A DNA stretch of 64,000 bases. Source: a virus (taxonomy: Duplodnaviria; Caudoviricetes). The stretch's first letter is position 1. Each line of letters begins with the position of its first letter. The position numbers were made by a program, and so were the translations under genes. Of this stretch, positions 6-61,187 are shown in pieces. The notes beneath the pieces were generated by a model. It was not told where the DNA came from. It ran no database searches and worked only from the letters and a program-made list of their open reading frames with translations. The stretch covers positions 224,001 to 288,000 of IMG/VR virus record IMGVR_UViG_3300017716_001697, one strand, 5' to 3'.

Positions 6-1202
6 TTGCCGTTTCCTGCATTCGCTACATTTGCTAATGAACTGATCGCTCGCAACCTAACGGGCGGTGCTGCGATTACTGCAATCGAGCAGCTCATGGC
101 TATCGCAACCAATGACGAGTGGAATGGCTGGTATCGTCCGATTCTTATTAAGGACTTAGGCTCTGGATTCAGTGAGTCCACTGTTAACAAGGCGGTTAAG
201 GGCGTTAATCCGGCATACATTATCCCTGTTACTCCTTACATGCGGTGTAGTCTGCCACCTAAGTCCAACATGGACACATGGGACTACTCTGAAGGTGTGT
301 ATTCACAAATCAAAGCAGACGGAATGTTTGCTTATGTGAATGTAAGCAAGGATGGTTTCGTGCAGATTACTTCACGTGGCGGTACAGTGATGCCACAGGG
401 CGTACTCGGTATCGAGGATGCTGCGTCAAAGACTTTCCGACACGGTACAAGCACACACGGCGAGCTGACAGTGTATCGTAACGGTGTGATGCTGGAACGT
501 CAGGTCGGTAATGGTATTCTGAATTCTGTATCCAAGGGCGGTGAGTTTGGCCCTGGTGAAGTTGTTGTATTTGATTGCTGGGATCAGATCCCACTGGAAC
601 ACTTTGTTTCTAAAGGCAAGTACAAGGTTACATACCATAATCGTTTCGTCGATCTGGAAGCACAACTAGCTGCCAGTGCATCCGATCAAATCAAAATGAT
701 CGAAACAAAGATTGTGTACAGTCCAGATGAATTGCTGGCACACTATCGTGATGCTCGTAAGCGTAAGCTGGAAGGCACTGTAGGCAAATGGCGTCACGGT
801 GAATGGAAGGACGGCACAAGTAAGGACCAAGTAAAGCAGAAGGAAGTGATCGATGTTGAGCTTGAAATCAAAGGTTTTACCGTTGGTAAAAACAAGTTTG
901 CACACTTGTTTGGCTCGCTCATCTGCCGTAGTAGCTGCGACCTGCTAGAAGTCAACGCTTCGGGTATCCCGGATGATTTACGAATTGAAATTAGCAACAA
1001 CCGCGACAAGTACATGAATAGTATTGCTACCATTCGCTCGAACGGTATCATGTATTCCACTAAGGAAGGTAAGTTGCATTCGCTGTTCCTGCCACGCCTA
1101 ATTGAACTGCGTGATGACAAAACGGTTGCTGACTCGTTCGAATACATTGAAGAGCAATTTGCTGCTGCAATGGGCACTGAAGAAGTAGAGGTCGAAGAAT
1201 GA
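6..1202 (+). CDS. lig: ATP-dependent DNA ligase (T4 gp30-like), 5' truncated by window edge
   Basis: Motif I KxDG (SQIKADGMF), motif III GELT, VFDC, motif IV EGTVGK, motif V KQK, C-terminal OB fold ending LFLPRLIELRDDK. Confidence 0.93.
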   Translation: MPFPAFATFANELIARNLTGGAAITAIEQLMAIATNDEWNGWYRPILIKDLGSGFSESTVNKAVKGVNPAYIIPVTPYMRCSLPPKSNMDTWDYSEGVYSQIKADGMFAYVNVSKDGFVQITSRGGTVMPQGVLGIEDAASKTFRHGTSTHGELTVYRNGVMLERQVGNGILNSVSKGGEFGPGEVVVFDCWDQIPLEHFVSKGKYKVTYHNRFVDLEAQLAASASDQIKMIETKIVYSPDELLAHYRDARKRKLEGTVGKWRHGEWKDGTSKDQVKQKEVIDVELEIKGFTVGKNKFAHLFGSLICRSSCDLLEVNASGIPDDLRIEISNNRDKYMNSIATIRSNGIMYSTKEGKLHSLFLPRLIELRDDKTVADSFEYIEEQFAAAMGTEEVEVEE

Positions 1203-1357
1203 GCTTTACAGAACAGACACCATATCGCAGAGGATATGAGGATGCGCAGAACGGTAAGGAGTTCTATGAGAATCCATTCTTCCCCGGTACACCGGATCAC
1301 AACCAATATCGTGACGGTTGGGAAGATGTTGCAGGCGAAATAGGGGAAGAAGAATGA
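1199..1357 (+). CDS. Rmf (ribosome modulation factor)-like small protein, 52 aa
   Basis: Translated by hand: MSFTEQTPYRRGYEDAQNGKEFYENPFFPGTPDHNQYRDGWEDVAGEIGEEE; Y.RGY...G.....NP......Y..GW pattern; ATGA overlaps at both ends. Confidence 0.55.
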   Translation: MSFTEQTPYRRGYEDAQNGKEFYENPFFPGTPDHNQYRDGWEDVAGEIGEEE

Positions 1358-1740
1358 AATCGCATGAATTAGCTGCTTTATTGTTGTCTCAACCTGACGT
1401 AGAGGTGGTAGCAAAAGGCGAGTGGGGATCAGAAATCATCACAGGGACAGTAATGGTAAAGCCTGCAGATGGTAATGCGGTGTATACCGATGCTGAATTG
1501 CAATCAATACGTGATGCTGTTGTTGAGTTCGATACAAAAGACTTTGCCGGCGAATACAATACAATGATTGAAGACATTAACGCAACGGCTGATCCGAAAC
1601 ATATCAAAGAACAGTTAGAGTATTGGGGTTCTCTGGAAAAATATACAGAAGTGTTTGCACGTGGCAGGGTGTACAATATGGAAATTCTAAATGCGTGTGA
1701 CACCGCTGAATATCAACTATTGCTGGTAGTGGAGACATGA
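1354..1740 (+). CDS. hypothetical protein
   Basis: ATG at 1354 overlaps the previous stop (ATGA); MKSHELAALL. Confidence 0.8.
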   Translation: MKSHELAALLLSQPDVEVVAKGEWGSEIITGTVMVKPADGNAVYTDAELQSIRDAVVEFDTKDFAGEYNTMIEDINATADPKHIKEQLEYWGSLEKYTEVFARGRVYNMEILNACDTAEYQLLLVVET

Positions 1741-2063
1741 AACAAGAAACTGCTATAACCCGTGTGTGGGCTCTTATCAGCACACGAAAGTATGTTGAAG
1801 CTGATGCGCTGATGCGTAAGTATAGACGCAAGTTTGGTAATCGCAAATTCGATTATTGGATGCGTCTTAACATCTTAAATGGACTTTGGGAACTGGAGTG
1901 CGAAATGATACAAAAATATCCATCAGCGTATTACTGCCACATAGGCACTGAACACTACATGATGTGCGAAGGAATTCGTAGCAGACATGTGACAAAGGAA
2001 GAAGTGATTGGATTGTGCAAGAAATACAATGCAGAACATAATCTGCCGAATGTAACATTATGA
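1737..2063 (+). CDS. hypothetical protein
   Basis: ATGA-coupled ORF in the operon. Confidence 0.75.
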   Translation: MKQETAITRVWALISTRKYVEADALMRKYRRKFGNRKFDYWMRLNILNGLWELECEMIQKYPSAYYCHIGTEHYMMCEGIRSRHVTKEEVIGLCKKYNAEHNLPNVTL

Positions 2064-2371
2064 ACTTCGTATTTGTTAGACTGTGTGATAACGACTTTCA
2101 GAGTCTTGCTGAAGCAACAGAATACGTCTGGAAGAACAAAGAGCATCCGCTTACTGAAGCAGAGTTTAAGCACTTTGTGGTAAACTATGTTGTGTTCCAG
2201 AATAGCGTAAGAAGAATTGGTAAAAACTTCATGAACAAGGACCATGAACACACACGCAAATATTTAGAAGGTCGCATCAAGGTCGAATACGTTGATATCA
2301 AACCAAACGTCGATCACGATGGTGGTAGCGTTATTCTGGATGTAAATACAGGATATACCTGGAGAACATAA
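2060..2371 (+). CDS. hypothetical protein
   Basis: ATGA-coupled ORF. Confidence 0.8.
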   Translation: MNFVFVRLCDNDFQSLAEATEYVWKNKEHPLTEAEFKHFVVNYVVFQNSVRRIGKNFMNKDHEHTRKYLEGRIKVEYVDIKPNVDHDGGSVILDVNTGYTWRT

Positions 2372-3189
2372 TGGCGCAGCACGCACACTACTGGTCGTGT
2401 TCCACATTTGCAGATTGGCTGCGTGGTACACCAAAATTGAAGTCAGGAACAAGCAAACAGTGGTCTGAGTGGAAAAAGGCTGCACGTAAGGCGCATCCGC
2501 ATCGGTATTGGATGGCCGAAGAAGCATTGGGTAAGATTCAGGATGCAGTAACTTGGCCTGTGCGATCACTCTACGACATCAAATATTATTGCGTTAATAG
2601 ATGGGTTACCAAATCACATGCTCTTACTGCTCATTCAACAGACATTAAACCCGGCGCGTGGTGCGATCTGAGCAACAGATTCCTGTTCTGCATGTTCAAC
2701 GAGTTGGTTGACTTTGTAGAAATCGAGACTGCATGGAGTCACATTGCATGGGGCGACAAAGAGCTACGTGAAAAATATGACGCACCGTGGAATGCAACAG
2801 GATGGTTCCGCACACGTAAATGGCGTAGTGCCGAAGCTGGATTAGACCATCTCAAATGGGCAAGTGAACTAACGTGGCCAGAGGACAACACAGGCGAACC
2901 CACGTCCCAAGCACTCACTGCTATTAAAATTCGAATGCTGTATGATTGGTGGAAAAATGTTCGACCTGCCAGGCCTGATCCTTACGATGCAAGTGGATGG
3001 AGTGAAATTTGCGATGCACGCCGTGAGCGTGACGGTGATAGCATCTTCGGCGAAGATCGTTCAGACGAAGAGCGTGCCCAAAGTAAGGTAGCATTAGACA
3101 AGCTGCACGAAATCGAAGAGCGGTACGAAGACGAAGACGAAACTATGATGATCCAGCTTATTAAGATAAGAAAAGGATTGTGGACATAA
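2371..3189 (+). CDS. Trp-rich hypothetical phage protein, 272 aa
   Basis: TAATG coupling; long ORF with normal codon usage. Confidence 0.85.
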   Translation: MAQHAHYWSCSTFADWLRGTPKLKSGTSKQWSEWKKAARKAHPHRYWMAEEALGKIQDAVTWPVRSLYDIKYYCVNRWVTKSHALTAHSTDIKPGAWCDLSNRFLFCMFNELVDFVEIETAWSHIAWGDKELREKYDAPWNATGWFRTRKWRSAEAGLDHLKWASELTWPEDNTGEPTSQALTAIKIRMLYDWWKNVRPARPDPYDASGWSEICDARRERDGDSIFGEDRSDEERAQSKVALDKLHEIEERYEDEDETMMIQLIKIRKGLWT

Positions 3190-3308
3190 TTAATTTCTGA
3201 AATGGGGATGCGCTGGATGTAATATGTCATCGGGCCCTACAAGTATGCCTTCGTGACCATTCAGTGGCTGGTTCAAGACCAGCGCAGGAATTTTAAAGGA
3301 TAAAATAT

Positions 3309-3509
3309 ATGGAAGATACAGTTCAAATAACTATTACCTCGTGTGATAAATGTCCACAGGTAGCAATTAGACGCCACTACACTGCTGATTCGTTTGAGCA
3401 TGTTATGGCATGGGAGTGTAGGAAAAGCGACATGAAGCACATCACATTCAACGAGTGGAATGATCCAAAACCGCCTATACCGAAGTGGTGTTTGCTTCGT
3501 AAGGGTTAA
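3309..3509 (+). CDS. small Cys-containing hypothetical protein
   Basis: CDKC...C...WC; AGGA upstream. Confidence 0.7.
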   Translation: MEDTVQITITSCDKCPQVAIRRHYTADSFEHVMAWECRKSDMKHITFNEWNDPKPPIPKWCLLRKG

Positions 3510-3511
3510 GA

Positions 3512-3850
3512 ATGGGAGTATCTACAAATTTTTACACAATATACGGAGTACGCACTGAGTGGGACAGCGATTTCTCAGAGGCGTATGACGAAGTATACAA
3601 AGATCCCGATGTACCATTTGTGTTGATGGATAGCATGGGTGGCGAATATTTTATATTTGGTATTGTGTTATTCAACTCTGGCGATATGCGCTGGGGATTC
3701 GAAAATGGTGATGCATTCAAAGAAATTGATTTAGGCGCGCTATCGGGATTAGAAACAGAATATCGTCAGAAATTTATTCCTAAATTTCCGCAATTTGCAT
3801 CATTGATTGACCAACCATTTAAACTAATGACTCTTGCCCATTACGGATGA
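3512..3850 (+). CDS. hypothetical protein
   Basis: ORF adjacent to the previous gene. Confidence 0.8.
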   Translation: MGVSTNFYTIYGVRTEWDSDFSEAYDEVYKDPDVPFVLMDSMGGEYFIFGIVLFNSGDMRWGFENGDAFKEIDLGALSGLETEYRQKFIPKFPQFASLIDQPFKLMTLAHYG

Positions 3851-3871
3851 ATTCATCCGATTTACAAGCTG

Positions 3872-3879
3872 TATAAATA
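3872..3879 (+). promoter_or_regulatory. T4-like late promoter TATAAATA
   Basis: Exact TATAAATA in an intergenic gap 16 nt upstream of ATG 3895. Confidence 0.6.
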
Positions 3880-3894
3880 GCATTATAATTAGAT

Positions 3895-4068
3895 ATGAAC
3901 AAAAGAGGACGGCGAGAAGCATTGATGGAAAGGCGGCGAGGCCCTAAGCCACTAAAGACTCGCGAACAATGGATAGCAGAAATGCAAGAACAGTGGAATC
4001 AGATAAAGGAATATAAAGAAATAAATCCCGAAAGTGTAAGGATTGCTAAAGAATTAGGTTTGAAGTAA
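3895..4068 (+). CDS. basic 57-aa hypothetical protein, probably late
   Basis: MNKRGRREALMERRRGPKPLKTREQWIAEMQEQWNQIKEYKEINPESVRIAKELGLK; translated by hand. Confidence 0.65.
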   Translation: MNKRGRREALMERRRGPKPLKTREQWIAEMQEQWNQIKEYKEINPESVRIAKELGLK

Positions 4069-4070
4069 AT

Positions 4071-4228
4071 CACAACTGATGAGCCTGTAAGGGCGAAATC
4101 ACAGAACTTGTAGAACTGTTTGGGAACCTTTTAACTCGGTGTATACAACATCCGAAAGGATGCCCGTAAGGAAACGAAGGGAACTGCCTGAGACTAGGAT
4201 ATAGGACTTCTCGTTCTGTGATATTGTG
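4071..4228 (+). ncRNA. type I hammerhead ribozyme with about 105-nt insertion in loop III
   Basis: Stem I CACAA(4071-75)/TTGTG(4224-28); core CTGATGA 4076-82; stem II GCCT-GTAA-GGGC; GAAA 4095-98; 10-bp stem III ATCACAGAAC(4098-4107)/GTTCTGTGAT(4213-22); cleavage triplet AUA, cut after 4223. Confidence 0.85.
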
Positions 4229-4510
4229 TTAGAAAGGTTGATCCACTGGCTTTCACTGCCCACTGGCTTGCTGCTTAAAATTGGCCGCCATGGATTTGTA
4301 CTAAGGATCAAAGGTAACTTGCGCTCATCCAAACGCAGAAGGAGATATATCCAAAGGATCTTTAACCAACTCTAATAGACGATGATAGTAGGGCAAAATA
4401 TTAACGCCCGAGCCACTTACTCGTACCGATAGCCGGGGTGTAATGCATATAGATTATAAATGTAGTATAGATAGAGTTAGGAAGGTAGTAATACTGAAAC
4501 TAACAGGAGT

Positions 4511-4538
4511 AAGCCCATGTAACAGTGGGCTTTCTTTT
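4511..4538 (+). terminator. rho-independent terminator
   Basis: AAGCCCA-TGTAACAG-TGGGCTT followed by TCTTTT. Confidence 0.75.
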
Positions 4539-4553
4539 GACTTAAAATAGCAG

Positions 4554-4582
4554 TTGACAAGATTGACAAACTACGTTACAAT
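4554..4582 (+). promoter_or_regulatory. sigma70-type early promoter
   Basis: TTGACA 4554-59, 17 nt, TACAAT 4577-82; AAGGAG RBS before ATG 4605. Confidence 0.75.
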
Positions 4583-4604
4583 ATAAGCATACAAAGGAGA
4601 TAGT

Positions 4605-4940
4605 ATGAACAATTCTGTAAAAGGCTGGTTGGGTGGTGTGGGTTTTATCGCAACAGGTATTGCCGTTGTGTTCGGTATGGCGTATGGCAGTTTCGCACTG
4701 TATTCATACTTCAATCCAAAGTACACCGCCGTGAATAACCAAACATTCAAGGAATCGCAACAGTACAACGACGGTATGGTTCGTGATCTGGAAAACCTGC
4801 AGATGGAATACATCAATGGCGACCAGGGTAAGAAAGACGCTATACGTGCCATTGTGTTGCATCGCTTCTCCGTCTACCCAATGGACAAGATGCCTATCAA
4901 TCTCCGCAATTTTTACAACTCTCTTAAGTCTGGAAACTAA
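4605..4940 (+). CDS. membrane-anchored hypothetical protein
   Basis: N-terminal TM helix; RBS AAGGAG. Confidence 0.85.
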   Translation: MNNSVKGWLGGVGFIATGIAVVFGMAYGSFALYSYFNPKYTAVNNQTFKESQQYNDGMVRDLENLQMEYINGDQGKKDAIRAIVLHRFSVYPMDKMPINLRNFYNSLKSGN

Positions 4941-4942
4941 AA

Positions 4943-5407
4943 ATGAAATACACACTAATCCTTGCTATTCTCTCTGTTGCAGCATTGTCTGCTTGCAATG
5001 AAACGAGCACTGAAATTCAGCAGCGACAACAAGAACAAGTCAGTCTGCAAGGAGCTCAATCGGTTGGCATGCCGGCTATCACAAATTTTGCTGAAAAGCG
5101 GATGATGAAGGACATCATCGAGATGCGTGACCAGAGCGTTGCTACCATTACTTATATCGTTGGCATGAACAATGAATATAAGAAACTGTGCAACAGTGTT
5201 GGTTTTGGTCTTCCGTATGCTACGCAATACACGAACCCAATGCGGTCACAGCAATACGGACCGATTCCACAGGCTGATCCAAATGGTTTGTTTAGCCCAT
5301 CTTCGGCTGAAGGTACATGGATTCTGTGTGTGAATCCGGAGACAAAGAAAGCGGTCCCAATCTATGTGGAACCACGTGTCATCATTAGTCAATTCGAACT
5401 GAAGTGA
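4943..5407 (+). CDS. lipoprotein
   Basis: Signal peptide with lipobox LSA-C (MKYTLILAILSVAALSAC). Confidence 0.8.
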   Translation: MKYTLILAILSVAALSACNETSTEIQQRQQEQVSLQGAQSVGMPAITNFAEKRMMKDIIEMRDQSVATITYIVGMNNEYKKLCNSVGFGLPYATQYTNPMRSQQYGPIPQADPNGLFSPSSAEGTWILCVNPETKKAVPIYVEPRVIISQFELK

Positions 5408-5414
5408 GTTTAGC

Positions 5415-5870
5415 ATGAAAAAGGGCGAAGAACTTTCCACAATGATCTTGTTGGCCGTAAATGGTCACTCGGGTCAATTTGATAGGGGCGGTAATCCATA
5501 CATCTTGCATACACTGAAAGTGATGCATTATCTGAAATCAGACGACGAAGCATTGCAGGCAATGGCTGTAGGGCATGACCTTATCGAAGATACAAAAACG
5601 ACATACAAAGATCTCCGTGACGCAGGAATTAGCGAGCGTGTAATCGACGGTATCCGTGCACTGACTAAAGTGCCTGGTCAGACTCTGGAAGAATACAAGG
5701 AAGCTGTATTCGCTAATGTTGATGCGATGCGTGTGAAACTAGCTGACCTGCGTCACAACAGTGACATTAGACGCCTCAAAGGTGTCACTGAAAAAGACAT
5801 CGCAAGGATTGCAAAATATATGCAATTCTATACTGAAATTCAGGCAAGGCTTGACCAACCGAAAGGCTAA
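5415..5870 (+). CDS. HD-domain hydrolase, RelA/SpoT (p)ppGpp hydrolase / Mesh1-like
   Basis: GQ.DRGG.PYILH, HDLIEDT and VKLADLRHN motifs. Confidence 0.8.
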   Translation: MKKGEELSTMILLAVNGHSGQFDRGGNPYILHTLKVMHYLKSDDEALQAMAVGHDLIEDTKTTYKDLRDAGISERVIDGIRALTKVPGQTLEEYKEAVFANVDAMRVKLADLRHNSDIRRLKGVTEKDIARIAKYMQFYTEIQARLDQPKG

Positions 5871-9551: not shown

Positions 9552-9962
9552 ATGGATACAGCATTGCAATCGAAGGTAGCGGCTATTGCTAAACGAGTGC
9601 GAATTTGGACAACGGATCGCGCTAAGAAAGCAAACTATAACCCACGCGACTTAACCGGTTGGTGCGCTATCTCTGCTGCATACTTGTTTCGTGAATTGCA
9701 GAAGGAAGGAATTAAGTCTGCAATTCACGTAAAGGATTACTACAACTGCCACTGTTTCGTTGTAGTGGATGATCATGTAGTGGATGTTACCGCAACTCAG
9801 TTTGCTGAATTTAGAAACAAGCCTATTGTGATTATGCACATCAAGGAAGCCGAAGCGTATAGTTTCTACACAACTGAAAAAGTATTTAAGTTACCTGATG
9901 AGCTTCGTGCACATCAGCTTCGTACCAAATGGCCTAAACGCCAAATTGCTGACACAAGGTGA
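9552..9962 (+). CDS. putative papain/transglutaminase-fold Cys hydrolase
   Basis: GWCA (Cys), HCF (His), VDVTATQF (Asp) in triad order. Confidence 0.5.
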   Translation: MDTALQSKVAAIAKRVRIWTTDRAKKANYNPRDLTGWCAISAAYLFRELQKEGIKSAIHVKDYYNCHCFVVVDDHVVDVTATQFAEFRNKPIVIMHIKEAEAYSFYTTEKVFKLPDELRAHQLRTKWPKRQIADTR

Positions 9963-13422: not shown

Positions 13423-13953
13423 ATGAGCAACATCAAAGAACGAGCATTGGAAATTTACAATCAACATATCGCGTTGGCAGCAACCGATGGTCGGTTGTTT
13501 CGCAAGACAGTGCTCGATCAACTCCGGGCAGAAACCGGCTGTACGCTAGCTGGTGCAGCAACTCACTACAACAATTCCAAGAAAGCATCCGCACCAGTCG
13601 AAGGCCTGGGTCGTGCTCCTGTTTCAAAGAATGTACGCCGCCCCGGTGCCAACAAAGGTAAGCCGGAAGAACTGCAAGACGAAGACGAATGCTTCACAGT
13701 TATTGAATTGTTGAAGCACAATGATGGTGTCACCGTAGGCCGTTGCCGCTCACACTTGTTACAAGGTGATGCAAGCGAAGAATTCGACGATCGTGTGCAG
13801 TACAAACCGCGTAATGAATGGGTGATGATTAAAGGCATTGGTCCCAACCACGGCGACACCTTCAAGCTCAGCTCATCCGAAGTTGAAATCAAACGCTATA
13901 CGCCTGCGGTAGTAGCGGTTGTGGAACACGAAGAACCACTGTTGGTTGATTAA
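13423..13953 (+). CDS. putative DNA-binding protein, AATHYN-GLGR family
   Basis: FRKTVL...GCTLAGAATHYNN.KK...EGLGR; own promoter and AGGAG. Confidence 0.85.
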   Translation: MSNIKERALEIYNQHIALAATDGRLFRKTVLDQLRAETGCTLAGAATHYNNSKKASAPVEGLGRAPVSKNVRRPGANKGKPEELQDEDECFTVIELLKHNDGVTVGRCRSHLLQGDASEEFDDRVQYKPRNEWVMIKGIGPNHGDTFKLSSSEVEIKRYTPAVVAVVEHEEPLLVD

Positions 13954-16813: not shown

Positions 16814-17074
16814 ATGGAATCACGTGCATTTATTGTCGAAGCTCAAGCATTGATTGGCGACATCAAAACATTCCAGGTTGCATACCTGTCACCCGAAGAC
16901 GAAATGGCTCAAGGAACTGCATTGCAGCGCCGTCTGAATCAATCGTTTGCTGGATTGCAAAATCCTACCTTGCCATCGGCTTACAAACTGCGTGATGCAG
17001 CAATGGGTGCCGGTTTCAGTATCGACCCAAAGCGCCTGCATTGGTTGTCACAATTCGAAACCATTAGGGGTTAA
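16814..17074 (+). CDS. hypothetical protein
   Basis: Own promoter; 5' UTR hairpin GTGGCATA/TATGCCAC. Confidence 0.75.
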   Translation: MESRAFIVEAQALIGDIKTFQVAYLSPEDEMAQGTALQRRLNQSFAGLQNPTLPSAYKLRDAAMGAGFSIDPKRLHWLSQFETIRG

Positions 17075-18127: not shown

Positions 18128-18508
18128 ATGACTACCTTAGCTGCAATTCCCGAAATAGTTGTCGTGTCTATCCCCGGTGGATACAGTCCTGGTCAGAATA
18201 AAATCGAGGTGATTAAGGCTCTCCGAAATCTCTCATATATGGGATTGAAGGAGGCAAAGGATTTGTCCGAGACGGCTGGCCAGCACACACTTCCCGTCAA
18301 CATGCGACTGACAGTAGATGCCGGCCGCGCCTTCGAGGATTACTGCCGCATATTGCGAAATAACGGGTGCGAAGTAGGCCCATCTATTCACAAGGTGCTT
18401 CAATCATTGCGCGAGCTCGGTGCAGAAGCATTGAGGTTGGGCGAAGACGATATCGCAAACGAAATCTTGCAAATGGTGTTAGCCGAGAAACTTAGAAAGG
18501 GGTTCTAG
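18128..18508 (+). CDS. ribosomal protein bL12 (L7/L12) C-terminal-domain-like protein
   Basis: NKIEVIKALRNLSYMGLKEAKDLSE matches the K..VIK.VR..TGLGLKEAK.LVE signature. Confidence 0.75.
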   Translation: MTTLAAIPEIVVVSIPGGYSPGQNKIEVIKALRNLSYMGLKEAKDLSETAGQHTLPVNMRLTVDAGRAFEDYCRILRNNGCEVGPSIHKVLQSLRELGAEALRLGEDDIANEILQMVLAEKLRKGF

Positions 18509-21840: not shown

Positions 21841-21882
21841 ATAGTCGTTGACCTTATTGTCCACCTGTTGTATAATATGTGT

Positions 21883-22876: not shown

Positions 22877-23109
22877 GTAACATCAACACACGTACATATG
22901 TTGAAAATTTTGTCAGGACGCCCACGAAAGGATTACGTACTAAACTACGAACCGAGCTTCGCGCACGTGGGGTAACTGGTAAATTTGGCACTGATGAAAT
23001 GCGTGACGGAAGATTGCGCGTTAAGGGCAATGTTAGCGATACCTCATTGACGATGTTTGATGGGCATCCAGTTTATTATGTTTTGGAGAAAAAGAATGAC
23101 ATTATTTGA
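22873..23109 (+). CDS. basic hypothetical protein
   Basis: GTG start overlapping the previous stop. Confidence 0.6.
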   Translation: MSNINTRTYVENFVRTPTKGLRTKLRTELRARGVTGKFGTDEMRDGRLRVKGNVSDTSLTMFDGHPVYYVLEKKNDII

Positions 23110-23524
23110 ACGAATTAAGGCAGACCAATTGGCTTCACGTAAGGCACACAATGCACTGGCATCATCCCTGTTGACTACGTTAATTGGTGAAGCAGCAGCC
23201 ATTGGCAAGAACGCGGGCAATCGAGATGTCACGGATGCCGAAGTGGTTGCACTAGTGAAGAAGTTCACTAAGGGTATGGACGACACGCTAGGCTTCTTGG
23301 GTGGCACCAATCCAGAGGCTACTGCGGTAGTAGTGGCAGAAAAGGGTATTTTGGCTAAGTATCTGCCACTACAGTTGACAGAACTTGCATTGCGCCATGC
23401 TGTTACGAGCATTATTGCAACAGAAGGCAACAACATGGGTAAGGTGATGGCTGCATTGAAATCTCGTTACGACGGTCAGTACGATGGGAAGATGGCATCA
23501 GCCATTGTTAAGGAATTGATTTAA
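23096..23524 (+). CDS. GatB/YqeY-domain protein
   Basis: L.ERIK.D...SRK...L..LIGE...D.EVV...KK...NMGKVM..LK....G..DGK..S..VKELI. Confidence 0.85.
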   Translation: MTLFERIKADQLASRKAHNALASSLLTTLIGEAAAIGKNAGNRDVTDAEVVALVKKFTKGMDDTLGFLGGTNPEATAVVVAEKGILAKYLPLQLTELALRHAVTSIIATEGNNMGKVMAALKSRYDGQYDGKMASAIVKELI

Positions 23525-23741: not shown

Positions 23742-24214
23742 AACAAATGTATGTAATTACCGCGGCTGGTGGCCGCTACGACAGTGCATGGGAACGTGCA
23801 GAATTTGTCACAGACGACGAAACAAAGGGCGAAGAATTTGTTGCCGCACGGAATAAACTTTCACAAGAAGTTATTGCTGCCAACGAGCAGACAGAAATGG
23901 CCATGCAACATTGGCGCAAAGTAAATCCGTGTCCACCACAGTTACCATATACAGAATTGGCTGTGCCTAGTTTCGAAGGTATTAAACAGAAAAACATTAC
24001 TAAGGAAATGCGCGACGAACGCGATACTATCCGTGCTCACAACAATACGATGTTGTCTGTTTCAATTAAACCAGTAGGCGACTGGTATCGTAAACAAGAC
24101 GAAGCGTTGGTAGCATATAGAGCGGCAACATTCAAACCCGAAGTAGTCAAGGGTATTGAACACGGTTATCACGATACCAGCTGGACTATCGACCCTATTG
24201 CGTGGCTAGAATGA
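23738..24214 (+). CDS. hypothetical protein
   Basis: ATGA coupling. Confidence 0.8.
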   Translation: MKQMYVITAAGGRYDSAWERAEFVTDDETKGEEFVAARNKLSQEVIAANEQTEMAMQHWRKVNPCPPQLPYTELAVPSFEGIKQKNITKEMRDERDTIRAHNNTMLSVSIKPVGDWYRKQDEALVAYRAATFKPEVVKGIEHGYHDTSWTIDPIAWLE

Positions 24215-24423
24215 ACGAACGAATCGAAGAATTCCGCAAACAATGTGATATGTACGACCGCGAATTCGGTACTTCATGGTTTGACCATAAAAAGTTTGCG
24301 GAATTGCTAATTAACGAATGCATCAAGGTCGCGAAGCAGCAACACGACCCGCACATTCTAAACTACAAACCAAGCGAACGGTTTGTAGAAGATTTACGAC
24401 AGCATTTTGGAGTCGCAGAATGA
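24211..24423 (+). CDS. MNERIxEL/KFAELI family hypothetical protein
   Basis: MNERIEE...KFAELLINEC...HFGV. Confidence 0.8.
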   Translation: MNERIEEFRKQCDMYDREFGTSWFDHKKFAELLINECIKVAKQQHDPHILNYKPSERFVEDLRQHFGVAE

Positions 24424-24683
24424 ATGAACGAATTGAAGAAATTAGGAGCATATGCTACATACCGAATAGCCAGGATCGGTATGACATGGACAAGTTTGCA
24501 GAGTTGCTCATCGAAGAATCTCTTAAGGTAATGCAACAAGAGTGGTACGACCTGAACAACGCGCCTGCAGTTGAAAACGAATCTTCCCGCGACGTTGGTC
24601 TCAGGGTAGGACAGAAAAGCGAAGTTATTATGCTGATGGCAAAAATTCGCAATCACTTTGATTTTGGAGTAAAGAATGACTGA
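24420..24683 (+). CDS. MNERIxEL/KFAELI family hypothetical protein
   Basis: MNERIEE...KFAELLIEE...HFDFGV. Confidence 0.8.
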   Translation: MNERIEEIRSICYIPNSQDRYDMDKFAELLIEESLKVMQQEWYDLNNAPAVENESSRDVGLRVGQKSEVIMLMAKIRNHFDFGVKND

Positions 24684-24915
24684 TGTAGTATATCTAACTG
24701 AACGTAATTTGCGTACATTGCTTTCTAAGCTAGAACGTAAAGCCAAGGGTGATACAACTATGTGTACCCTGATTAAGTACAAGCAAAAGACACCGGAATA
24801 CGCACAATCTATGGACGAATTAATGGTGGTTGCTGTAGCAGATGACATCTACTATGCTGCACAGAATCGCGTGGCGGGCGATGTTCATCCTCTCGATGCC
24901 CCAAACACAAAATGA
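24676..24915 (+). CDS. hypothetical phage protein
   Basis: VYL.ERNL.TLL.KL.R...Y...R..G..H. Confidence 0.8.
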   Translation: MTDVVYLTERNLRTLLSKLERKAKGDTTMCTLIKYKQKTPEYAQSMDELMVVAVADDIYYAAQNRVAGDVHPLDAPNTK

Positions 24916-25786
24916 CTATACTGGATGTCTTACGATACCCAGTCACGGATATCTATAACCTAGGAGAGATAGATGCGCTGCCTGCGAATCTGTTCATTGA
25001 TTGGGCAACAGAATGTTCCGGACAGCCACGAGAACGTATTGCAAAAGCAGAAGCATCGGCTGGCCTCACTCGCAAATCAATCACCCATGCAATGGTGTTA
25101 GCAAAAGTGCAGACTGAAACACGTAGACAGCACCGAAACTCTGGTTGGACAGATCTATACAAAGCACAGTTTCTGAAACGGTTAAAAGAAATGATAGCAG
25201 AGTATGAGCCTATTTGATGTACTTAGATACCAAATCAGCGTGCCACCTACTGAAGCAGAGTTAGAAGCACTTCCTAAGGGTATACTTAAAAAGTGGCTCG
25301 TAGAGATAGGAGCACTCGGCTGGCATTCTTACGACGACGCATCCCATTTGCCGGGGGTTATAGCCGAATACTATCAACGAAATAATCGAAGGGATGACCT
25401 TTTCGATATACCTACATTAAAAAGAATAATCAAGGAGCACGACAATGAGTCTCTTTGACTTAATCCGATATCCGATTACCGATATATACGATCAGAGACA
25501 ACTAGATCATGTTCCACAATTTATAATTGACACATGGGTAGAGTTGTGTGCTGTTGATGCACGACTCGACTTAAAGGAATTTTTATCATTTAATGCGATA
25601 ACATCGTTGACTGGGTTGAATACCACAGTAAACATTATCAAGGTGTGTGTGAAGCAAAAGATACTTGCCCACAATCTGCGATCAATGCAGACGTCTGATA
25701 TGCTAACCGGGTTTGAAATAAAAGCACAATATACAAGGATGCTTCGAGAGCTTGTATATGAGAATGAGTACTACGGTGAGGTATGA
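24912..25786 (+). CDS. three tandem paralogues with N-terminal (I/L)(L/F)D(V/L)(L/I)RY motif: 24912-25217, 25204-25458, 25445-25786
   Basis: MTILDVLRYPVTDIY / MSLFDVLRYQISVPP / MSLFDLIRYPITDIY. Confidence 0.8.
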
Positions 25787-27114
25787 GAGCTCGTGAATTT
25801 ATCGTAGAAATACAATGGTTCCATATCCTACGGGAAGCACATAAGAATATCACTATATTACCGTACACAAAAGATTTCTCCGGGGCAGTGTATATATCCA
25901 TACCAGACATAACAAACGAAGATCTATTATACATGAAGTTAATGCATCCTAATTTTAAATATAGAGAAGTATGACTGTAACATCGCATCAACCGAAATAT
26001 AAGTTCCAGTATGTAACAATCCTGTATAGCGATCTTCAAGAGCTACATAATTACATGAATGCATTGCCGAAGAGTTATGTTGTGTGCAGTCCAAAAGTGG
26101 TACCATCCGAGTTTACAACAGTCAAGACTCCGTGTAAACTACTGTTAGATATCACAGACGAAGAACTCTTATTCCTTAAACTAAAATTTAAAACATACGA
26201 TGTCGACGAACATAAAAGTAGCAAATGAACAGATACGATCATTGTTTGATACAGTGAAAATGTCTTGCGGCGAACCATTAGTGAAATACCTGCAATACAG
26301 AAATTCAAAGGATGGCGTATCCACATTTGCATTTACTAATGCAGCTGATAAGGAATCAGTAAACTTCATTACATTAAAATTCGATCAACCGGCAAACAAC
26401 CATGGCAATTCATAAGATATCAATCAGGGCAAGTGATTACACAAGGCTGGAAGATCTCATTCTAACCATGCCCGGGCGTGATGTAACGATAATGAGAGCC
26501 GACGAATACCCTGACGGCGATGCTCCATATACTGTAGTATATCTACGTCTAGAACAGACAGAAGATCTTTCATATATCTTGTTAATGGTGGGTGGTACAC
26601 AACTGCGACATCCATGACAAACATATATTCGGTACGTTTCGATCCCGAAACATCTGCCAACGAATATAGAGAAATAAGAATCTTCTTACGTCAAATCGAT
26701 GTTCCATTCAAACGGTATCTGCAACATGCACCGGATAATGCACAGATACGAATTACCTACGATCTGTATACAACTCCAGACAACATAAGTTTTCTATCAC
26801 TAAAATATAACAAATTTGAAGTGTTATCGACTATCAAAGGGTTCAATGGATAAATATCCTAAACGGGTATTATCATGGTCAATCATTACGAAGTTACAGT
26901 AAGCACAAAAGACAAAGATAAATTTCTGAATGACTTCTACGAAATAATTGATGCATATATCTTGTATCATACCATGGTTAGTATAGACACGGATAAGATT
27001 ACAATATCAATCAACGATGAGGATCTTGCATTCCTTGCGTTGCGTTATAAAATCGCCCCTTGTAGAATTAATAATGCTCTAACCTTGTTGACAGACTTCA
27101 ACATACTGCACTAA
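25783..27114 (+). CDS. array A, six small paralogues with C-terminal T(D/N)E(D/E)L..(L/M)KL motif: 25783-25974, 25971-26228, 26200-26415, 26402-26617, 26614-26853, 26875-27114
   Basis: ITNEDLLYMKL, ITDEELLFLKL, ADKESVNFITLKF, QTEDLSYILL, TPDNISFLSLKY, NDEDLAFLALRY; overlapping start/stop codons. Confidence 0.75.
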
Positions 27115-27152
27115 CCAATTTACACGGCCAGACCCGCATGTTATAATGTAAC

Positions 27153-27718
27153 ATGACTGAAGACGACACATTCAACAAGCTACGCAAACCCACATTCGAC
27201 GCAATGTATAACAATTATATCGGGTGGTTGAATAATGAATTTTCATTCAATGGGCTAACATTAACCCTCTGGCTCGATAAAAACAATTGGGACTATGTTG
27301 AATTTGCCAATGCATGCATAAAACAAGCAGAAGATCATTAAAATGACTGAAGATGATACATTCGGTGCCTTGCAGAGGGAAGACTTCCATAGTGTATATT
27401 CTCGATATCTACGAGCTAGTGATTACACACCCATATCGGACGAAGATCTAAAAGGCACGGGCTGGACATTGGTAGAATTTCAGATTGCATTTAATAAATG
27501 GTTGATATCAAATGCCAGCCAAGATGAATAAACAATACACAGAAGAAGATACATTCAATGCTCTTAGGCAAACAAAACTCGAACGAGTGCAAATAGCTGT
27601 CGCTGAAGCACAAGGTAGTAATTACCGATTAGAACATGCTGATCTGATTAAGGTATTAAAGGAACATAATTGGAAAGTATCCGAATACTGGAAACAAGTC
27701 AAGGCAGCATCAAAGTGA
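27153..27718 (+). CDS. three TEDDTFNxLR-family paralogues: 27153-27341, 27343-27531, 27524-27718
   Basis: MTEDDTFNKLRK, MTEDDTFGALQR, YTEEDTFNALRQ; C-terminal L...(N/G)W...E(F/Y). Confidence 0.85.
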
Positions 27719-28175
27719 GAACATATCTCCTTCGTGTGAGTGACATAGATAAGAGTAAGTTAAATACCATTCTTTCTCTAGATCAGCGTATGAACATAAA
27801 CTCGGATTTGGACGAGTATGGATTTCAATTTAAACAATTTAATTTAACAGACGAAGAGCTTCTTGTGATTAAACTTATATTTCCATGGTGCATCCCGATG
27901 CTGCTAAAATGAAAACATTTCTACTCGAATTCAATGTTCACGCACCATTCTACAGTTACAGTCAAGATATTAAACGTATCGAGAAAGTAATAGGGACTAA
28001 GCTAATTCAGGTCGGTACATCCTATTCGCGGTTGCGCAGATTCGAATTGGACGACACCAGTGCCATTATTATACTCAAATTTGCATGCGATGATATTATC
28101 TTAAGCCTCAAACAAGTTGAAAAAATGGATAGTATGTTCGTCGATGATTACCGTGTGGTAGCAAATATATGTTAA
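27715..28175 (+). CDS. two array-A paralogues: 27715-27912 (GTG start), 27909-28175
   Basis: LTDEELLVIKLIF; LDDTSAIIILKF. Confidence 0.7.
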
Positions 28176-28762
28176 CAGAAGAAGATACATTCAATGCACT
28201 TCGCAGAATACCGCTGCGGAAGATGCATATACTATTGAAACCGCTTTTGATGCATGACGCACCAGGCGAAGTAATAGATAACCTATTGCACGCCAATGGA
28301 TGGACACTCGACGAGTATTACACAGAAAGGGATGCCACAGCAATGGCACGTATCAATGCATACTGCTGAAGATACGTTCAACACGTTAAGACGCATACCA
28401 TTTGACATGGTAAGACAGACACTTATTACTATCGCTATCGGAACCAATGTAAAGACCTTCCTGGAAAGTAATGGCTGGACAGAAAAAGAATACAGTGATA
28501 TGTGGCATCACAAATACAATAATGGCGTGCTCTTGGTTGGGCGCACCAGATAACAATAATGACTGAAGACGACACATTTAACACCCTACGGAGGCCATCT
28601 GTTACGGAGATGTATGCTATTCTGCATAATCATTCATATAGCATAACCTTAAATAATCCTGTACTAGAACAGCACGGCTGGACACGAGAAGAATATGATA
28701 AAGCAAAGTCCGGGATAGATATGGGTATATTCAAAGAGATACGACGTAGGTTGAACAAATGA
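28169..28762 (+). CDS. three TEDDTFNxLR-family paralogues: 28169-28369, 28356-28553, 28559-28762
   Basis: LTEEDTFNALRR, HTAEDTFNTLRR, MTEDDTFNTLRR; L..(N/H)GWT..EY. Confidence 0.85.
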
Positions 28763-30721
28763 AAAGCTATAAGATAGCAGTGCATGAGGATGAAGTAGTC
28801 GCGTTTATCAAAGAAACTGGTGCAACCTGCGACACAGCATGGGATGAACAAACCAGAACAACGAAACGATTCTTCGTGTTTGGTACTAATGGCATCCCAT
28901 ACTTCCTACACCACTTGACAACAGAAGAAGAACATGTAACAATGATACTAATGAAATACAAATCCATCCGTTATAGCAGACCTATGCACGGGATGCTGTA
29001 TTGGTGTAACGCGGGTGAGGAAATATGAAAGATCACTACCGTGTCTGGATTAATTTACACGATAAAAAGAAGTTTGAAGCACTGCTGCGTATCAACGGTA
29101 TCTACATTACATGCAGCCCTGATGCATACTTTAGATCTGAGTACGTACCAGTTTGTTATGATACACTAATGAGTGGAGAAGATGAACTAATGCTCCAACT
29201 CTCAATCGATTGTGTAATACTAAACAGGAAAGACGATGCTACAGATCTTCGAACTAAGGCATTAGAAAAAGTAAGAGCAATGGTATGAAAACTTATATCA
29301 TAGACTTTGGCGACCACACACTAGATCAATTCAATAGTATTGTGGAGCCATCACGCAGACTTAAGGATGAGAATACAGGCTGGGTAAGACGCTGGCGTGC
29401 AGTAAAGCTAACAGACGAAGAAGCCACAGTAGTGTGTCTCATCTTCAAACATATCAGAGTAAATGAAGGAGAAGGCGTCCAACTTCTCACCAAGCACTTT
29501 AGCGATCCAAAATGAACAATACACGCGAAATAGAAATAACAGTACAAACCGAAAGGTGTAACGAGCTTGCCGATGTATTGTCAACCCTGAGGCTGACATA
29601 CTATGCCTCAGATCAAGCAACCGGTACAATCACATCCACATTCAGTATCAGAGCAACCCCAGAAGACCTAGTATTGCTGAAACTTAGTATTAGCGATATA
29701 GTATTAACTGATGTATCACTTAGTATTAATGATGCAGGATATAAGGCAAGGATGACAGGCGAAGTGATAGCTCTCCGCCACAAGTATGTAGGTAAATGGC
29801 TGGGATTGAAACTGTGATAGATTGTCTTATATACTTAGATGAAACAACTGTGTCTCGCTTTAATGAACTTGTCGCACCATGTCACAGACATAAAACTTCG
29901 ATAAGCGATGTTCCACAATGGTATAGAGTTGTGCTGTATGACGAAGAAGCTACCGCAGTGTTTCTAGTATTCAAACACTTAGCAGCACAAAGAATGCCTC
30001 CATATTTCCGGGAAATGTTAGGGGATATCCATGAGTATTAAAATGCATAAGATATTTCTTGACCATAATTCCGCACAAGGATTCAATAATGTAGTGTGCG
30101 AAGAGCATCAAGTACACCACAACTTAATAGATTACTTCCCACACGGTGCCTGGTTTAATGTACTACTATCAGACGAGGAATTGACCATAATTACGCTAAA
30201 ATTCGAACCTAATCTCATTAATACATATAGACCCACCCAATAGCTCATCAATCATATTTGTGCTATAGTATTGTTATGAGTAAACTCCACTATTTGGCAT
30301 TCCTTAGTAATGATGAAATCCCCGAGTTCAACAAGATAGTATCCAACGAATCACAACTCACAATGTGCAGCCACGGCCTATCAGCTCAGTGGTTTTATAT
30401 CACACTATCACCCGAAGAATCGACCATAATTAAGCTAAAATTCAGATATGTAGAGCGAGACACACATCAACGCAATGTCACCGCTTATTCTGAATAAAGA
30501 GAACGAAAATGAATGATATTACAAAGAACTATAGTGTATTCATACATAGGAAAGATGTAGATAGATTCTATACTATAGTGAGTAACTTCGATCACAACAG
30601 CGGCCTAATGGAAACACTCTTCAATAAGCTACATGCAGGCTATCGCTTAAAAATGCATGATCATGAAACAATTATACTAAGACTTAGTATAGAAGACATA
30701 TCGATCACAGAATCCCACTAA
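28759..30721 (+). CDS. array A, eight small paralogues: 28759-29028, 29025-29288, 29285-29515, 29512-29817, 29814-30041, 30031-30243, 30276-30497, 30509-30721
   Basis: C-terminal motifs TTEEEHVTMILMKY, SGEDELMLQL, LTDEEATVVCLIF, TPEDLVLLKL, YDEEATAVFLVF, LSDEELTIITLKF, LSPEESTIIKLKF, HDHETIILRL. Confidence 0.8.
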
Positions 30722-31970
30722 GGAAAAATACACTGTGTACGAAACATGTACAGTAAAGAACCTTAGCATAATATTGCTTGAATAGTGAGAATGATAGCAT
30801 AGTATGCTATAGAAAAAGACTTAATTGGACGTAGCGGTTTAAAGGTTATTTGCAGAGGCCTCTCTCCAGGAAATAGAATGAAAAAGGGAAAGCCCCCATA
30901 GGTCTAAGATAGGAATCCTGTGTGAATTTCACGGTCAGATTTGGAAATCAGATTTGGAATCCTAGGTGCCCTTTTCAAATAGGAATCCTACGGGAGGTTT
31001 TGGCGGCAGATTCCTGCCTATGCGCCTAAAGGGCGGTCTAGGTGCCAATATGCGGCGCAATGCCCACATCAGTGCGCCGTGGCGTATGCGTATATGTGAA
31101 ATCCTTTCCACTTTAATTCACTTTGGCTTATGGTTATCGATTCGATGCCCTATAGCTTTTCACTGTGGAATCCTTATGTGCGCAATATTATGCTAAGATT
31201 TCCACGATTCGAAGCATAGAATCAAGATCTTGCACTGTGTGAATCTAAACTTTTCACTACGATCAAAGCTTTTCTTAGCATACTATGCTATGCATACCAC
31301 ATTGGAAACCTTAGTTAAACCACTAGACTGTGCTTATGCCAACAGTTATAATGGTAGGGCACGCTAGCGGGAGCAGAACAGTCACTGTAAAAGATTACAT
31401 ACAGTAAGGCCTGTACACCGGTCCGTCTCTGTTCGCCGCTAGCAACTTTATACTATAGTAGAGATCATGAACTTCTTTACTATACGTTTCTTTACTACAT
31501 AGAGTTTCTATGAATTTCACACTGTGGTTTTCTGTGAATTTCGATAAAGAGTTTCGGATTTCATAAGAATTTCACAGTGCGGATTTCGATCGGTTAGTAA
31601 GTGCTTACCAACATAGTGTGGTTTTCTTGCTACTGTGAGTTTCATGCAACGAAACGTGGAATCGGTTCCGCTTCGGTGTGGCGTATGGCCAACAGCGTTT
31701 GATCTGGTGGTTGGTGGCTTTCAACCTCGGAGGGCTGGTCTTGTGATCGTAGTACGGCCACGTGGGTTAATGCGAGGATTGTGCCCTAAGGTGTCTAAGG
31801 TATCGTTTAGCCTCGGCAGTAAAATCTTAGGTATCGTGCTCTTATCCGAGGTGGGCCGTAAGAGCATTGATTCTTATAGTGATTCTGTCTAACCTAAGCA
31901 CTAAGCCTCGCAAACGGTTCTTAAGACTCTGCAGACAGATTGCGAGGCTGTAGATATCGCTTTACTTTGA
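30722..31970. other. about 1.25-kb non-coding, repeat- and palindrome-rich junction (candidate terminus, origin or injection signal)
   Basis: No credible ORF; GGAATCCT x4 (30912, 30956, 30982, 31167); 16-bp inverted pair 30762-77/31182-97; palindrome ATAGCATAGTATGCTAT 30794-810 with complementary copy 31276-91. Confidence 0.6.
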
Positions 31971-32016
31971 GTGTGTGCTATGCTATAATAAGGTATCAAC
32001 CGCTTTAGAGACTATC

Positions 32017-56302: not shown

Positions 56303-56581
56303 ATGCTGTATAATGTAAATACCATTATGCCAACTTCAAGCTTATTCCCTGATTACTGTTATTGCACTATAGTGAAATGCTGGGCGCATGAAGATATAGA
56401 CCATCATTCAAAACGGTTCTACGCCGCAACAGAATGGTTACTTAAATATAATGCAGTATTAATGGAAGACTGCGAAGATGCACACGGACATTATTACACT
56501 TCAAGATACATTGTGAAGTTTGTTAGTAAAGATGATATGCTAGCGTTTATGCTTCAATTCGGTGATTTGCTAGAACGCTAA
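56303..56581 (+). CDS. array-B-type small protein
   Basis: C-terminal VKFVSKDDMLAFMLQF. Confidence 0.7.
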   Translation: MLYNVNTIMPTSSLFPDYCYCTIVKCWAHEDIDHHSKRFYAATEWLLKYNAVLMEDCEDAHGHYYTSRYIVKFVSKDDMLAFMLQFGDLLER

Positions 56582-60853: not shown

Positions 60854-61185
60854 ATACAAACACTATATTAAACGAAGATTACACAGCTGGTGTATTGGCA
60901 GGTATACCATTTTTCTGTATTAACAGATTATACAGATGTAATGAAGGAAGCATGGCACTTAAGGTGCAATATGAATTTACTTTTGATAACGGGTACGGAG
61001 CCAGCATTGTCGAATTCCATGATAAGATGTATTCTGGTGGTGCGCAGTACGAATTAGCAGTACTCCGTGATGATCGGTTGGTATACGATACCTATATAAC
61101 ATCTGATGTGGAGCGTGGCAATGAAAAGTATATGCACGAATTACTAAATAAAATTGAACAGTTAAACCAACTGCCTAGTAGTTAG
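60850..61185 (+). CDS. hypothetical phage protein (not array family)
   Basis: F.F.NGYGASIV....Y.G...YELAVL. Confidence 0.85.
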   Translation: MNTNTILNEDYTAGVLAGIPFFCINRLYRCNEGSMALKVQYEFTFDNGYGASIVEFHDKMYSGGAQYELAVLRDDRLVYDTYITSDVERGNEKYMHELLNKIEQLNQLPSS

Positions 61186-61187
61186 CT

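Follow-up and report, generated by a model that had tools for sequence, protein, structure and literature searches.

We analyzed a 64,000-nucleotide stretch of viral DNA (hereafter, “the window”), bases 224,001-288,000 of the 364,576-bp IMG/VR record IMGVR_UViG_3300017716_001697, which has direct terminal repeats, and find that 5.8 kb of it (window positions 24912-30721) are filled by 25 consecutive + strand open reading frames (ORFs) of 62-113 aa. This block (“array A”) is separated by an island of other genes from a second array of small genes (“array B”). In the reading that best explains the observations as a whole, to which we assign a probability of about 0.55, array A is a coupled block of 25 small genes, its family A is a diverged branch of the superfamily to which the genes of array B belong, and the superfamily provides a repertoire of small protein binders.

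The record has genes for a DNA polymerase of T4 type, a tail sheath, a ribonucleotide reductase, and an SbcC-like nuclease. Its polymerase shares 38-43% identity with the enzymes of Sinorhizobium phage Phosso, Agrobacterium phage Atu_ph07, Vibrio phage 2.275.O, and RaK2-like phages; because of these identities, with the tail sheath also used for placement, the record is, to judge from its sequence, a new lineage of T4-superclade jumbo myophages. Array A lies in the non-structural part of this 365-kb phage, probably as two operons, and a megablast search of the array against 50,697 phage records gave no nucleotide match.

Organization of the array

Positions below are those of the window unless genome positions are indicated, and all array genes are on the + strand. 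Three groups of genes, two of them named for their N-terminal motifs, follow one another in the order 3 MSLFDVLRYP, 6 A, 3 MTEDDTFNxLR, 2 A, 3 MTEDDTFNxLR, and 8 A genes. Packing is tight, with a coding density > 1: neighboring genes overlap at 18 of the 24 junctions, many as ATGA, the usual overlap being 4-29 nt and the longest 49, and at the other junctions they are separated by 1-38 nt. Shine-Dalgarno (SD)-like 4-mers are found upstream of 4 of the 25 starts, which is chance level (13% for random positions, versus 52% for ORFs of ≥ 200 aa). With so few SD sites and such tight packing, translational coupling is the natural reading of the arrangement, in line with an earlier annotation of this DNA made from the letters alone (“the original prediction”), which had described the genes as tightly coupled with few ribosome-binding sites. 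GC content is 37-42% across the array versus 43-50% in its surroundings.

Two sigma-70-like promoter candidates, each matching the consensus at 11 of 12 positions, are placed exactly in intergenic gaps. The first (TTGACC-17-TATAAT; 21848-21876, + strand), a consensus match only, precedes the block of genes leading up to the array and is a possible start of a transcription unit running into the array's left half. The second (TTTACA-17-TG-TATAAT, with an extended -10; 27119-27147, + strand), likewise a consensus match, sits inside the array’s only 38-nt gap (27115-27152) and would divide the array into two operons. An Rfam scan of 24-33 kb matched no family.

Family A and its relation to array B

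Sixteen array ORFs, in agreement with the count of about 16 in the original prediction, carry a recognizable acidic-then-hydrophobic motif leading into L-K-F (“t-D/P-E-E-l-x-x-i-x-L-k-F”), and we refer to them as family A. The motif had been described as the ending of these proteins. That is literally so for the B proteins, where it forms the C-terminus, whereas in the A proteins it is internal and precedes a strand and a tail of ~3 to 45 residues; this arrangement marks A as a separate branch and not as a B-type member. Our own regular expression for the motif matches 6 A genes only. Pairwise BLASTP within the family finds one subcluster (the genes starting at 27670, 29285, 29796, 30031, and 30258), with a best identity of 42%, and most A gene pairs are undetectable by this method.

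Membership was assessed with leave-one-out hidden Markov models (HMMs) scored in a database with 2050 decoys, and with HHalign comparisons of each doubtful gene plus its ortholog on contig L007 (described below) against the family core excluding that gene. By these tests, 11 of the 16 genes are supported (25971, 26614, 26875, 27670, 28759, 29285, 29512, 29796, 30031, 30258, and 30509), two are weakly supported (25783, P 0.005; 29025, P 0.014), and three are unproven as family members, which puts the apparent size of family A in the array at 13 to 16 genes.

Array B (58080-63777, + strand) consists of 24 genes ending in tEEDAxAFKLRFS and one unrelated 111-aa ORF (60850-61185), and one more small ORF runs to ~64033. 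HHalign of A versus B, the comparison suggested with the original prediction, gives P values of about 4e-4 to 8e-4 (4.6e-4 and 8.3e-4 in two runs, and 3.7e-4 with expanded, non-overlapping sets) at a probability of 24-37%, over 20-31 columns, which cover the motif-bearing C-terminal strand and helix. Control comparisons, in which the other two array families are aligned with A and B, give P values of 0.3-0.6. When HMM iteration is started from the 16 A genes and run for nine rounds in a database of this genome, the relatives’ ORFs, and the 2050 decoys, it recruits 20-21 of the 24 B genes but not a single decoy, minus-strand ORF, or member of the other two array families. BLASTP finds no direct A-B edge; a chain of four steps (E < 1e-3) leads from the A gene at 27670-27912 through L008_11888, L008_7371, and L001_8520 in relatives to 60489-60665 in array B. 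Relatives’ arrays at the A position (L008 and L030) contain genes that score with both seed profiles, one built from A only and the other from B only. On this evidence it is likely that A and B share ancestry, distantly, and belong to one superfamily, as had been predicted.

Structure predictions for A and B agree in part. AlphaFold2 (AF2) models were obtained for an A protein (30258-30497; predicted local distance difference test score [pLDDT] 83; beta10-17, alpha21-27, beta43-50, alpha52-61, beta65-67) and a B protein (59656-59892; pLDDT 81; beta2-5, alpha23-35, alpha43-49, beta52-55, beta61-64, alpha67-77). In the HHalign register, A strand 43-50 and helix 52-61 fall onto B strand 61-64 and helix 67-77, and the predicted secondary structures of A and B agree within the aligned part. 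Both appear, from the models, to be ferredoxin-like alpha/beta mini-domains of ~75 residues, with a putative common core of an N-terminal strand, a helix, a strand, and a second helix under an acidic cap (tDEEL..iKLkF in A; tEEDAxAFKLRF in B). After the last core helix, A proteins are predicted to have an extra short strand and a variable tail, whereas B proteins stop at the helix and would have, before it, an extra hairpin strand that is missing from A.

The two arrays are alike in being overlapping tandem arrays of small (56-102 aa) + strand genes with few SD sites, whose products have the predicted order strand, helix, strand, acidic-capped amphipathic helix. Besides the strand and tail that only A adds after the motif, they differ in charge, A being near neutral (mean pI 6.25, net charge -1.5) and B acidic (mean pI 5.5, net charge -3.8), and in the mutual divergence of their paralogs, which is far greater in A (4 BLASTP edges among 16 A genes vs 30 among 24 B genes). 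Only A is interleaved with two unrelated families. In cultured phages no A-type genes were found, while the B profile has weak matches in Sinorhizobium phage Phosso and Atu_ph07.

Several points weigh against the reading given at the outset. The direct A-B profile similarity is modest, and an acidic-capped amphipathic helix could arise twice; the AF2 topologies of A and B are not identical outside the last strand and helix; an iteration seeded with B converges at 121 sequences without any A gene, so that the link is one-directional and depends on intermediates from relatives; three of the 16 putative A genes (26200, 26402, and 27885) are not separable from controls; and promoter-like sites across the region are no commoner than in shuffles, both of the sites described above being candidates only. 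Profile searches within this genome alone also leave families A and B unmerged. It could accordingly be argued that A and B are non-homologous, two small alpha/beta families that converged on an acidic N-cap and an amphipathic helix with an L-K-F core, and that the iterative search drifted along the shared motif. The low HHalign probability confined to the motif region, the missing direct BLASTP edge, the failure of the B-seeded iteration to recruit A, and the differing topologies would all fit such convergence. We nevertheless consider it unlikely, given that nine rounds of iteration brought in no decoys, minus-strand ORFs, or other array families, that the relatives’ arrays contain genes scoring with both profiles, and that some single A genes match the family A core in HHalign over 55-60 columns, beyond the motif.

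The union of the A-seeded and B-seeded sets comprises 76 ORFs of this genome, all on the + strand and spanning genome positions 33.8-287.8 kb. The superfamily is thus about twice as large as the ~40 members first proposed and is not confined to the two arrays, with extra clusters at genome 131-134, 190-197, and 216-222 kb. Nothing consistent came from Pfam and PHROG scans, whether run with single members or with the full set of 16 A genes. Sequence searches of the PDB with profiles of all four families gave nothing below E 0.005, the sole low match being a designed repeat protein.

A 92-aa + strand gene at 56303-56581, to the left of a 470-aa minus-strand gene, is a further superfamily member (…SKDDMLAFMLQFGDLLER) and an outlier of the B cluster on the far side of the 470-aa gene. 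An IMG/VR search for relatives of the 470-aa gene’s locus found none.

Evolution and synteny

The evolution of the array was examined against L007, an 8.5-kb Logan contig that is colinear with the window from 21.8 to ~31.7 kb. All 13 of the 13 array genes tested, including 26200, 26402, and 27885, have an intact ortholog there. Amino acid identity to L007 is 62-92% for flanking genes (nonsynonymous divergence, dN, 0.05-0.32), 72-76% for MSLFDVLRYP genes (dN 0.14-0.17), and 37-61% for family A genes (dN 0.28-0.59), and array genes are 2-7x faster in dN than flanking genes. Synonymous divergence (dS) is saturated or > 1, and the ratio of the two (omega) is 0.18-0.53 where computable. Because the orthologs are intact while dS is saturated or > 1, the sequence comparison indicates that the array genes are under purifying selection yet fast-evolving. 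Copy number differs as well: there are 6 MTEDDTFNxLR copies in the window versus 2 in L007, and the window exceeds L007 further by one MSLFDVLRYP gene without a one-to-one ortholog there, by the gene at 25783, and by five A genes (28759-30041) that likewise lack a one-to-one ortholog, one of these five having an ortholog in a third relative (P0029).

Varying copy number between relatives and fast evolution are also what one would expect if the arrays were largely functionless filler, tandem duplication having expanded the genome to match the capacity of a larger headful capsid, with the duplicates now drifting; indeed, according to a proposal by Hua et al. 2017 (PMC5646251), tandem duplication is one way in which phage genomes reach jumbo size. 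We find this quite unlikely here. Every one of the 25 ORFs is intact, their packing is tight, and their overlaps are conserved; the orthologs are open at 37-61% identity while synonymous sites are saturated, so that omega is < 1; and the fold core positions are conserved across ~76 paralogs and several phage lineages.

The layout of the two arrays around the island had been explained in the original prediction either by insertion of the island into one ancestral array or by arrays that meet the genome ends. The latter is contradicted by the positions: the window covers 224-288 kb of the 364.6-kb record, array B stops close to genome 288,033, with ordinary genes beyond it, and neither array touches a record end. 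The former was examined in the ZENG19 relative, whose gene order, obtained by walking along contigs, is made up of three linked segments. L030 carries, at 1029-5800, an array of 18 or more small genes with matches to the A and B profiles. L029 and L028 carry island genes, colinear with window 34.8-48.4 kb, among them those for an S8-type peptidase, an AAA-like protein, and a SprT-like protein. L004 and L005 carry a 203-aa gene and a B-type array. In this relative the island is thus retained between a small-gene array and a B-type array. Another relative (L001) has island genes upstream of its B array. Because the ZENG19 relative, whose proteins are 35-70% identical, keeps the same layout, the array-island-array order is, as far as these sequences tell, older than the divergence of lineages at that distance; a recent insertion of the island is therefore excluded, and an ancient split of one array by the island may have taken place. 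A tblastn search with the island peptidase against phages gave no match.

The island of the ZENG19 relative (L029:10001-12032) also holds three genes that are found left of array A here (13423-13953, 16814-17074, and 9552-9962), a relocation that is a rearrangement between lineages.

Immediately right of array A, an ORF-poor 1.25-kb block (30722-31975) is 84% identical in nucleotide sequence to L007:5735-7048, with runs of > 100 identical bases, and this conservation holds although the synonymous sites of neighboring genes are saturated. Repeats of GGAATCCT, GAATTTCAC, and TCAGATTTGGAA occur in the block, as does, at 30794-30809 and 31276-31291, a perfect palindrome of 16 nt (of the TAGCATAGTATGCTAT type).

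Possible function

Family, structure, and literature searches gave no lead to function. By analogy with fast-evolving phage accessory clusters, and in view of the conserved core with variable surfaces, the copy-number turnover, and the host-type promoter candidates, we suggest tentatively that the family may act as an early diversified repertoire of small protein binders. A conserved hydrophobic core would carry hypervariable surfaces; the paralogs, as small cytoplasmic proteins, would be made together from host-type promoters early in infection, with their translation coupled; each might act on a different host target, neutralizing or redirecting it in the service of host takeover or anti-defense; and tandem duplication followed by divergence would keep renewing the set. 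We noticed neither membrane nor signal features in the array proteins. A predicted homodimer of an A protein scored 0.11 against a mark of 0.42, which speaks neither for nor against binding. Mimicry of DNA, as by Ocr, was considered and is unattractive for A, whose net charge is near zero.

Both models match ferredoxin-like folds, and several PDB chains are common to the two lists. The B model matches unnamed viral clusters at template modeling (TM) scores of 0.65-0.70, and a BFVD fold search with A gave weak matches only, to uncharacterized proteins. Among the structural neighbors are RRM, KH, ACT, HisG_C, and ribosomal S6-type domains, and it might be supposed from these, and from the position of the arrays on either side of the island, that the proteins are nucleic-acid- or small-ligand-binding regulators (on the pattern of the RRM, KH, and ACT-like ferredoxin folds) serving this RNA- and promoter-rich region. 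Such a role is distinctly improbable: the structural matches are all weak and generic for the fold, a near-neutral A and an acidic B are unfavorable for RNA or DNA binding, and the alignments show no conserved surface motif of basic or aromatic residues.

The best-ranked structural neighbor of the A model is the I9/subtilisin propeptide fold (POIA1, PDB 1v5i_B). The model resembles this propeptide (PF05922) in size, in its alpha/beta sandwich with a helix on an antiparallel sheet, and in its C-terminal extension; it differs in having three strands, not four, in lacking any sequence signal, and in not being attached to a peptidase. This predicted likeness to a protease prodomain is the most specific structural lead, although it is statistically no better than that to ACT. 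That A proteins are trans-acting mimics of I9-type prodomains (chaperones or inhibitors), the A branch having kept a complete prodomain-like sandwich and a variable tail so that each tail, occupying an active site, could plug or chaperone a different protease, be it a host enzyme or the phage’s island-encoded S8-type peptidase, is highly improbable, since all scores are in the range of a common arrangement, with equally good ones for ACT and HisG_C domains, family A members have no match to Pfam Inhibitor_I9 (PF05922) at E up to 5, and they are without an evident signal peptide.

Known parallels and significance

Gene expansions of this general kind are known from other jumbo phages. Hua et al. 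reported arrays of > 30 similar genes in phages G and 121Q, and Iyer et al. 2021 (PMC7824862) a ~35-copy zinc-ribbon expansion in phage G. As here, these are lineage-specific tandem duplications of one small-protein family, head to tail, in a jumbo phage. Unlike the zinc ribbon of phage G, the present family has an alpha/beta fold, and while the phage G and 121Q copies are described as “very similar,” A copies are at most 42% identical and the ~76 superfamily copies are spread over several clusters, the 121Q array being set apart by description only.

Phage early regions contain clusters of small accessory, host-takeover, and anti-defense genes, such as the hyperplastic regions of T4 and anti-CRISPR clusters. 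These share with array A many small, fast-evolving genes in one orientation, with a content that varies between close relatives. They are usually mixtures of unrelated genes, whereas one superfamily dominates here. No Aca-type regulator turned up next to the array, where no search for helix-turn-helix (HTH) proteins was made inside it, and Pfam gave nothing in the array genes tested.

The A-B link, the larger copy count, the two companion families, and the test of array-island-array synteny are new. With ~76 copies, the superfamily exceeds both the ~35-copy zinc ribbon of phage G and the > 30-gene arrays of phages G and 121Q, and is to our knowledge among the largest single-family expansions in phages. 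It is undescribed and absent from Pfam and PHROGs. Array A displays how far its divergence reaches, with a new C-terminal element, a neutral instead of an acidic charge, and admixture of two expanding families, all while its place beside the island was kept; this conservation beside the island points to sustained selection for diversity. Should the paralogs indeed be a repertoire of binders, they would be a rich source of small inhibitors and the phage equivalent of the multigene families found in large eukaryotic viruses; should the arrays be filler, they would bear on how jumbo genomes grow. For annotation, the gain is seed alignments for three new small-protein families.

Companion families

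The original prediction had noted two families with N-terminal motifs interleaved with the motif-bearing genes, and both were recovered. HMMs of the three array groups match solely their own members, and in the decoy-controlled iteration the MSLFDVLRYP and MTEDDTFNxLR families converge at 8 and 11 sequences, respectively, with no drift into A or B. By sequence criteria, then, the array interleaves three unrelated families.

The three MSLFDVLRYP genes occupy 24912-25786. The first (24912-25217, 101 aa) and third (25445-25786, 113 aa) have orthologs at L007:2214-2525 (72-73% identical) and L007:2512-2847 (74-76% identical); the second (25204-25458, 84 aa) is the extra copy mentioned above. The six MTEDDTFNxLR genes, assigned by the family HMM, lie at 27153-27718 (27153-27341, 62 aa; 27343-27531, 62 aa; 27512-27718, 68 aa) and 28169-28762 (28169-28369, 66 aa; 28356-28553, 65 aa; 28559-28762, 67 aa). 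For the fifth of these, the longest ORF begins at 28296, which is probably too early, the internal ATG at 28356 being the start adopted here. Further members are found at genome 222.0-222.6 kb (two genes) and, more weakly (E 3e-4), at 114.4 kb. One-to-one pairs of the interleaved families, in the style of toxin-antitoxin systems, were considered and dropped, as the gene order is not one of alternating pairs.

Individual family A genes

From left to right, the first group of six begins with the weakly supported gene at 25783-25974 (63 aa; motif ITNEDLLYMKLMH; leave-one-out E 0.22) and the supported gene at 25971-26228 (85 aa; leave-one-out E 5.6e-4 and 1.8e-6; HHalign P 5e-6). Two genes of 71 aa with motif-like segments and unproven membership follow: 26200-26415 (…SVNFITLKF; leave-one-out E 24-100, HHalign P 0.08), which is a real gene with a 56-57% identical ortholog in L007, and 26402-26617 (…TEDLSYILLMV; HHalign P 0.48), whose L007 ortholog is 59-61% identical. 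The group closes with two supported genes of 79 aa, 26614-26853, supported as an orthologue-pair profile (HHalign P 2.9e-4, 60 columns), and 26875-27114 (leave-one-out E 0.003 and 2.3e-5).

The middle pair consists of the supported gene at 27670-27912 (longest ORF 80 aa; leave-one-out E 2e-4 and 6e-6), which is the A-side end of the BLASTP chain and whose TTG start at 27670 is probably too early, and the unproven gene at 27885-28175 (96 aa; …TSAIIILKF; leave-one-out E > 2, HHalign P 0.13), with a 39-40% identical ortholog in L007.

The last group of eight comprises 28759-29028 (89 aa, supported; leave-one-out E 0.012); 29025-29288 (87 aa, weakly supported, its HHalign match spanning 58 columns); 29285-29515 (76 aa, supported; leave-one-out E 1.8e-4), which has the 42% BLASTP identity to 29796-30041; 29512-29817 (101 aa, supported; leave-one-out versus the superfamily E 2.1e-6); 29796-30041 itself (81 aa, supported), the gene whose ortholog P0029 is in another relative; 30031-30243 (70 aa, supported; leave-one-out E 5.8e-7); 30258-30497 (79 aa; leave-one-out E 2.3e-7), the protein modeled above, whose start is probably at the ATG at 30276, that at 30258 being too early; and 30509-30721 (70 aa; leave-one-out E 0.018), the last gene of the array.

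A profile search with family A also returned proteins of 1051-3523 aa at E values from 5e-13 to 3e-4. We rejected these as summed weak matches: they consist of repeated VTDDD..LTLSI (Calx-beta-like) units, and each single stretch scores E 4e-4 or worse. In a distant relative, P0031 (L008:10001-10453) is a 150-aa protein made of two tandem family A domains (…CTEEDLAFLSLKFNL… and …CTEEELTIIKLKFNLF), a fused duplicate whose second domain ends at the motif, at the very C-terminus, as B proteins do.

Neighboring genes

Two adjacent genes left of the array, 24202-24423 and ~24420-24683, share “MNERIEE(F/I)R...KFAELLI(N/E)E” and are a fourth small paralog pair, so that the paralog-rich block begins before 24912. 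Farther left are a YqeY-like gene at 23057-23524 and a 126-aa open frame at ~18188-18283 (G000:C1:242188-242283) that matches Pfam Ribosomal_L12 at 34 bits, above the cut-off; a 123-aa L12-like gene is found at the same relative position on a relative’s contig.

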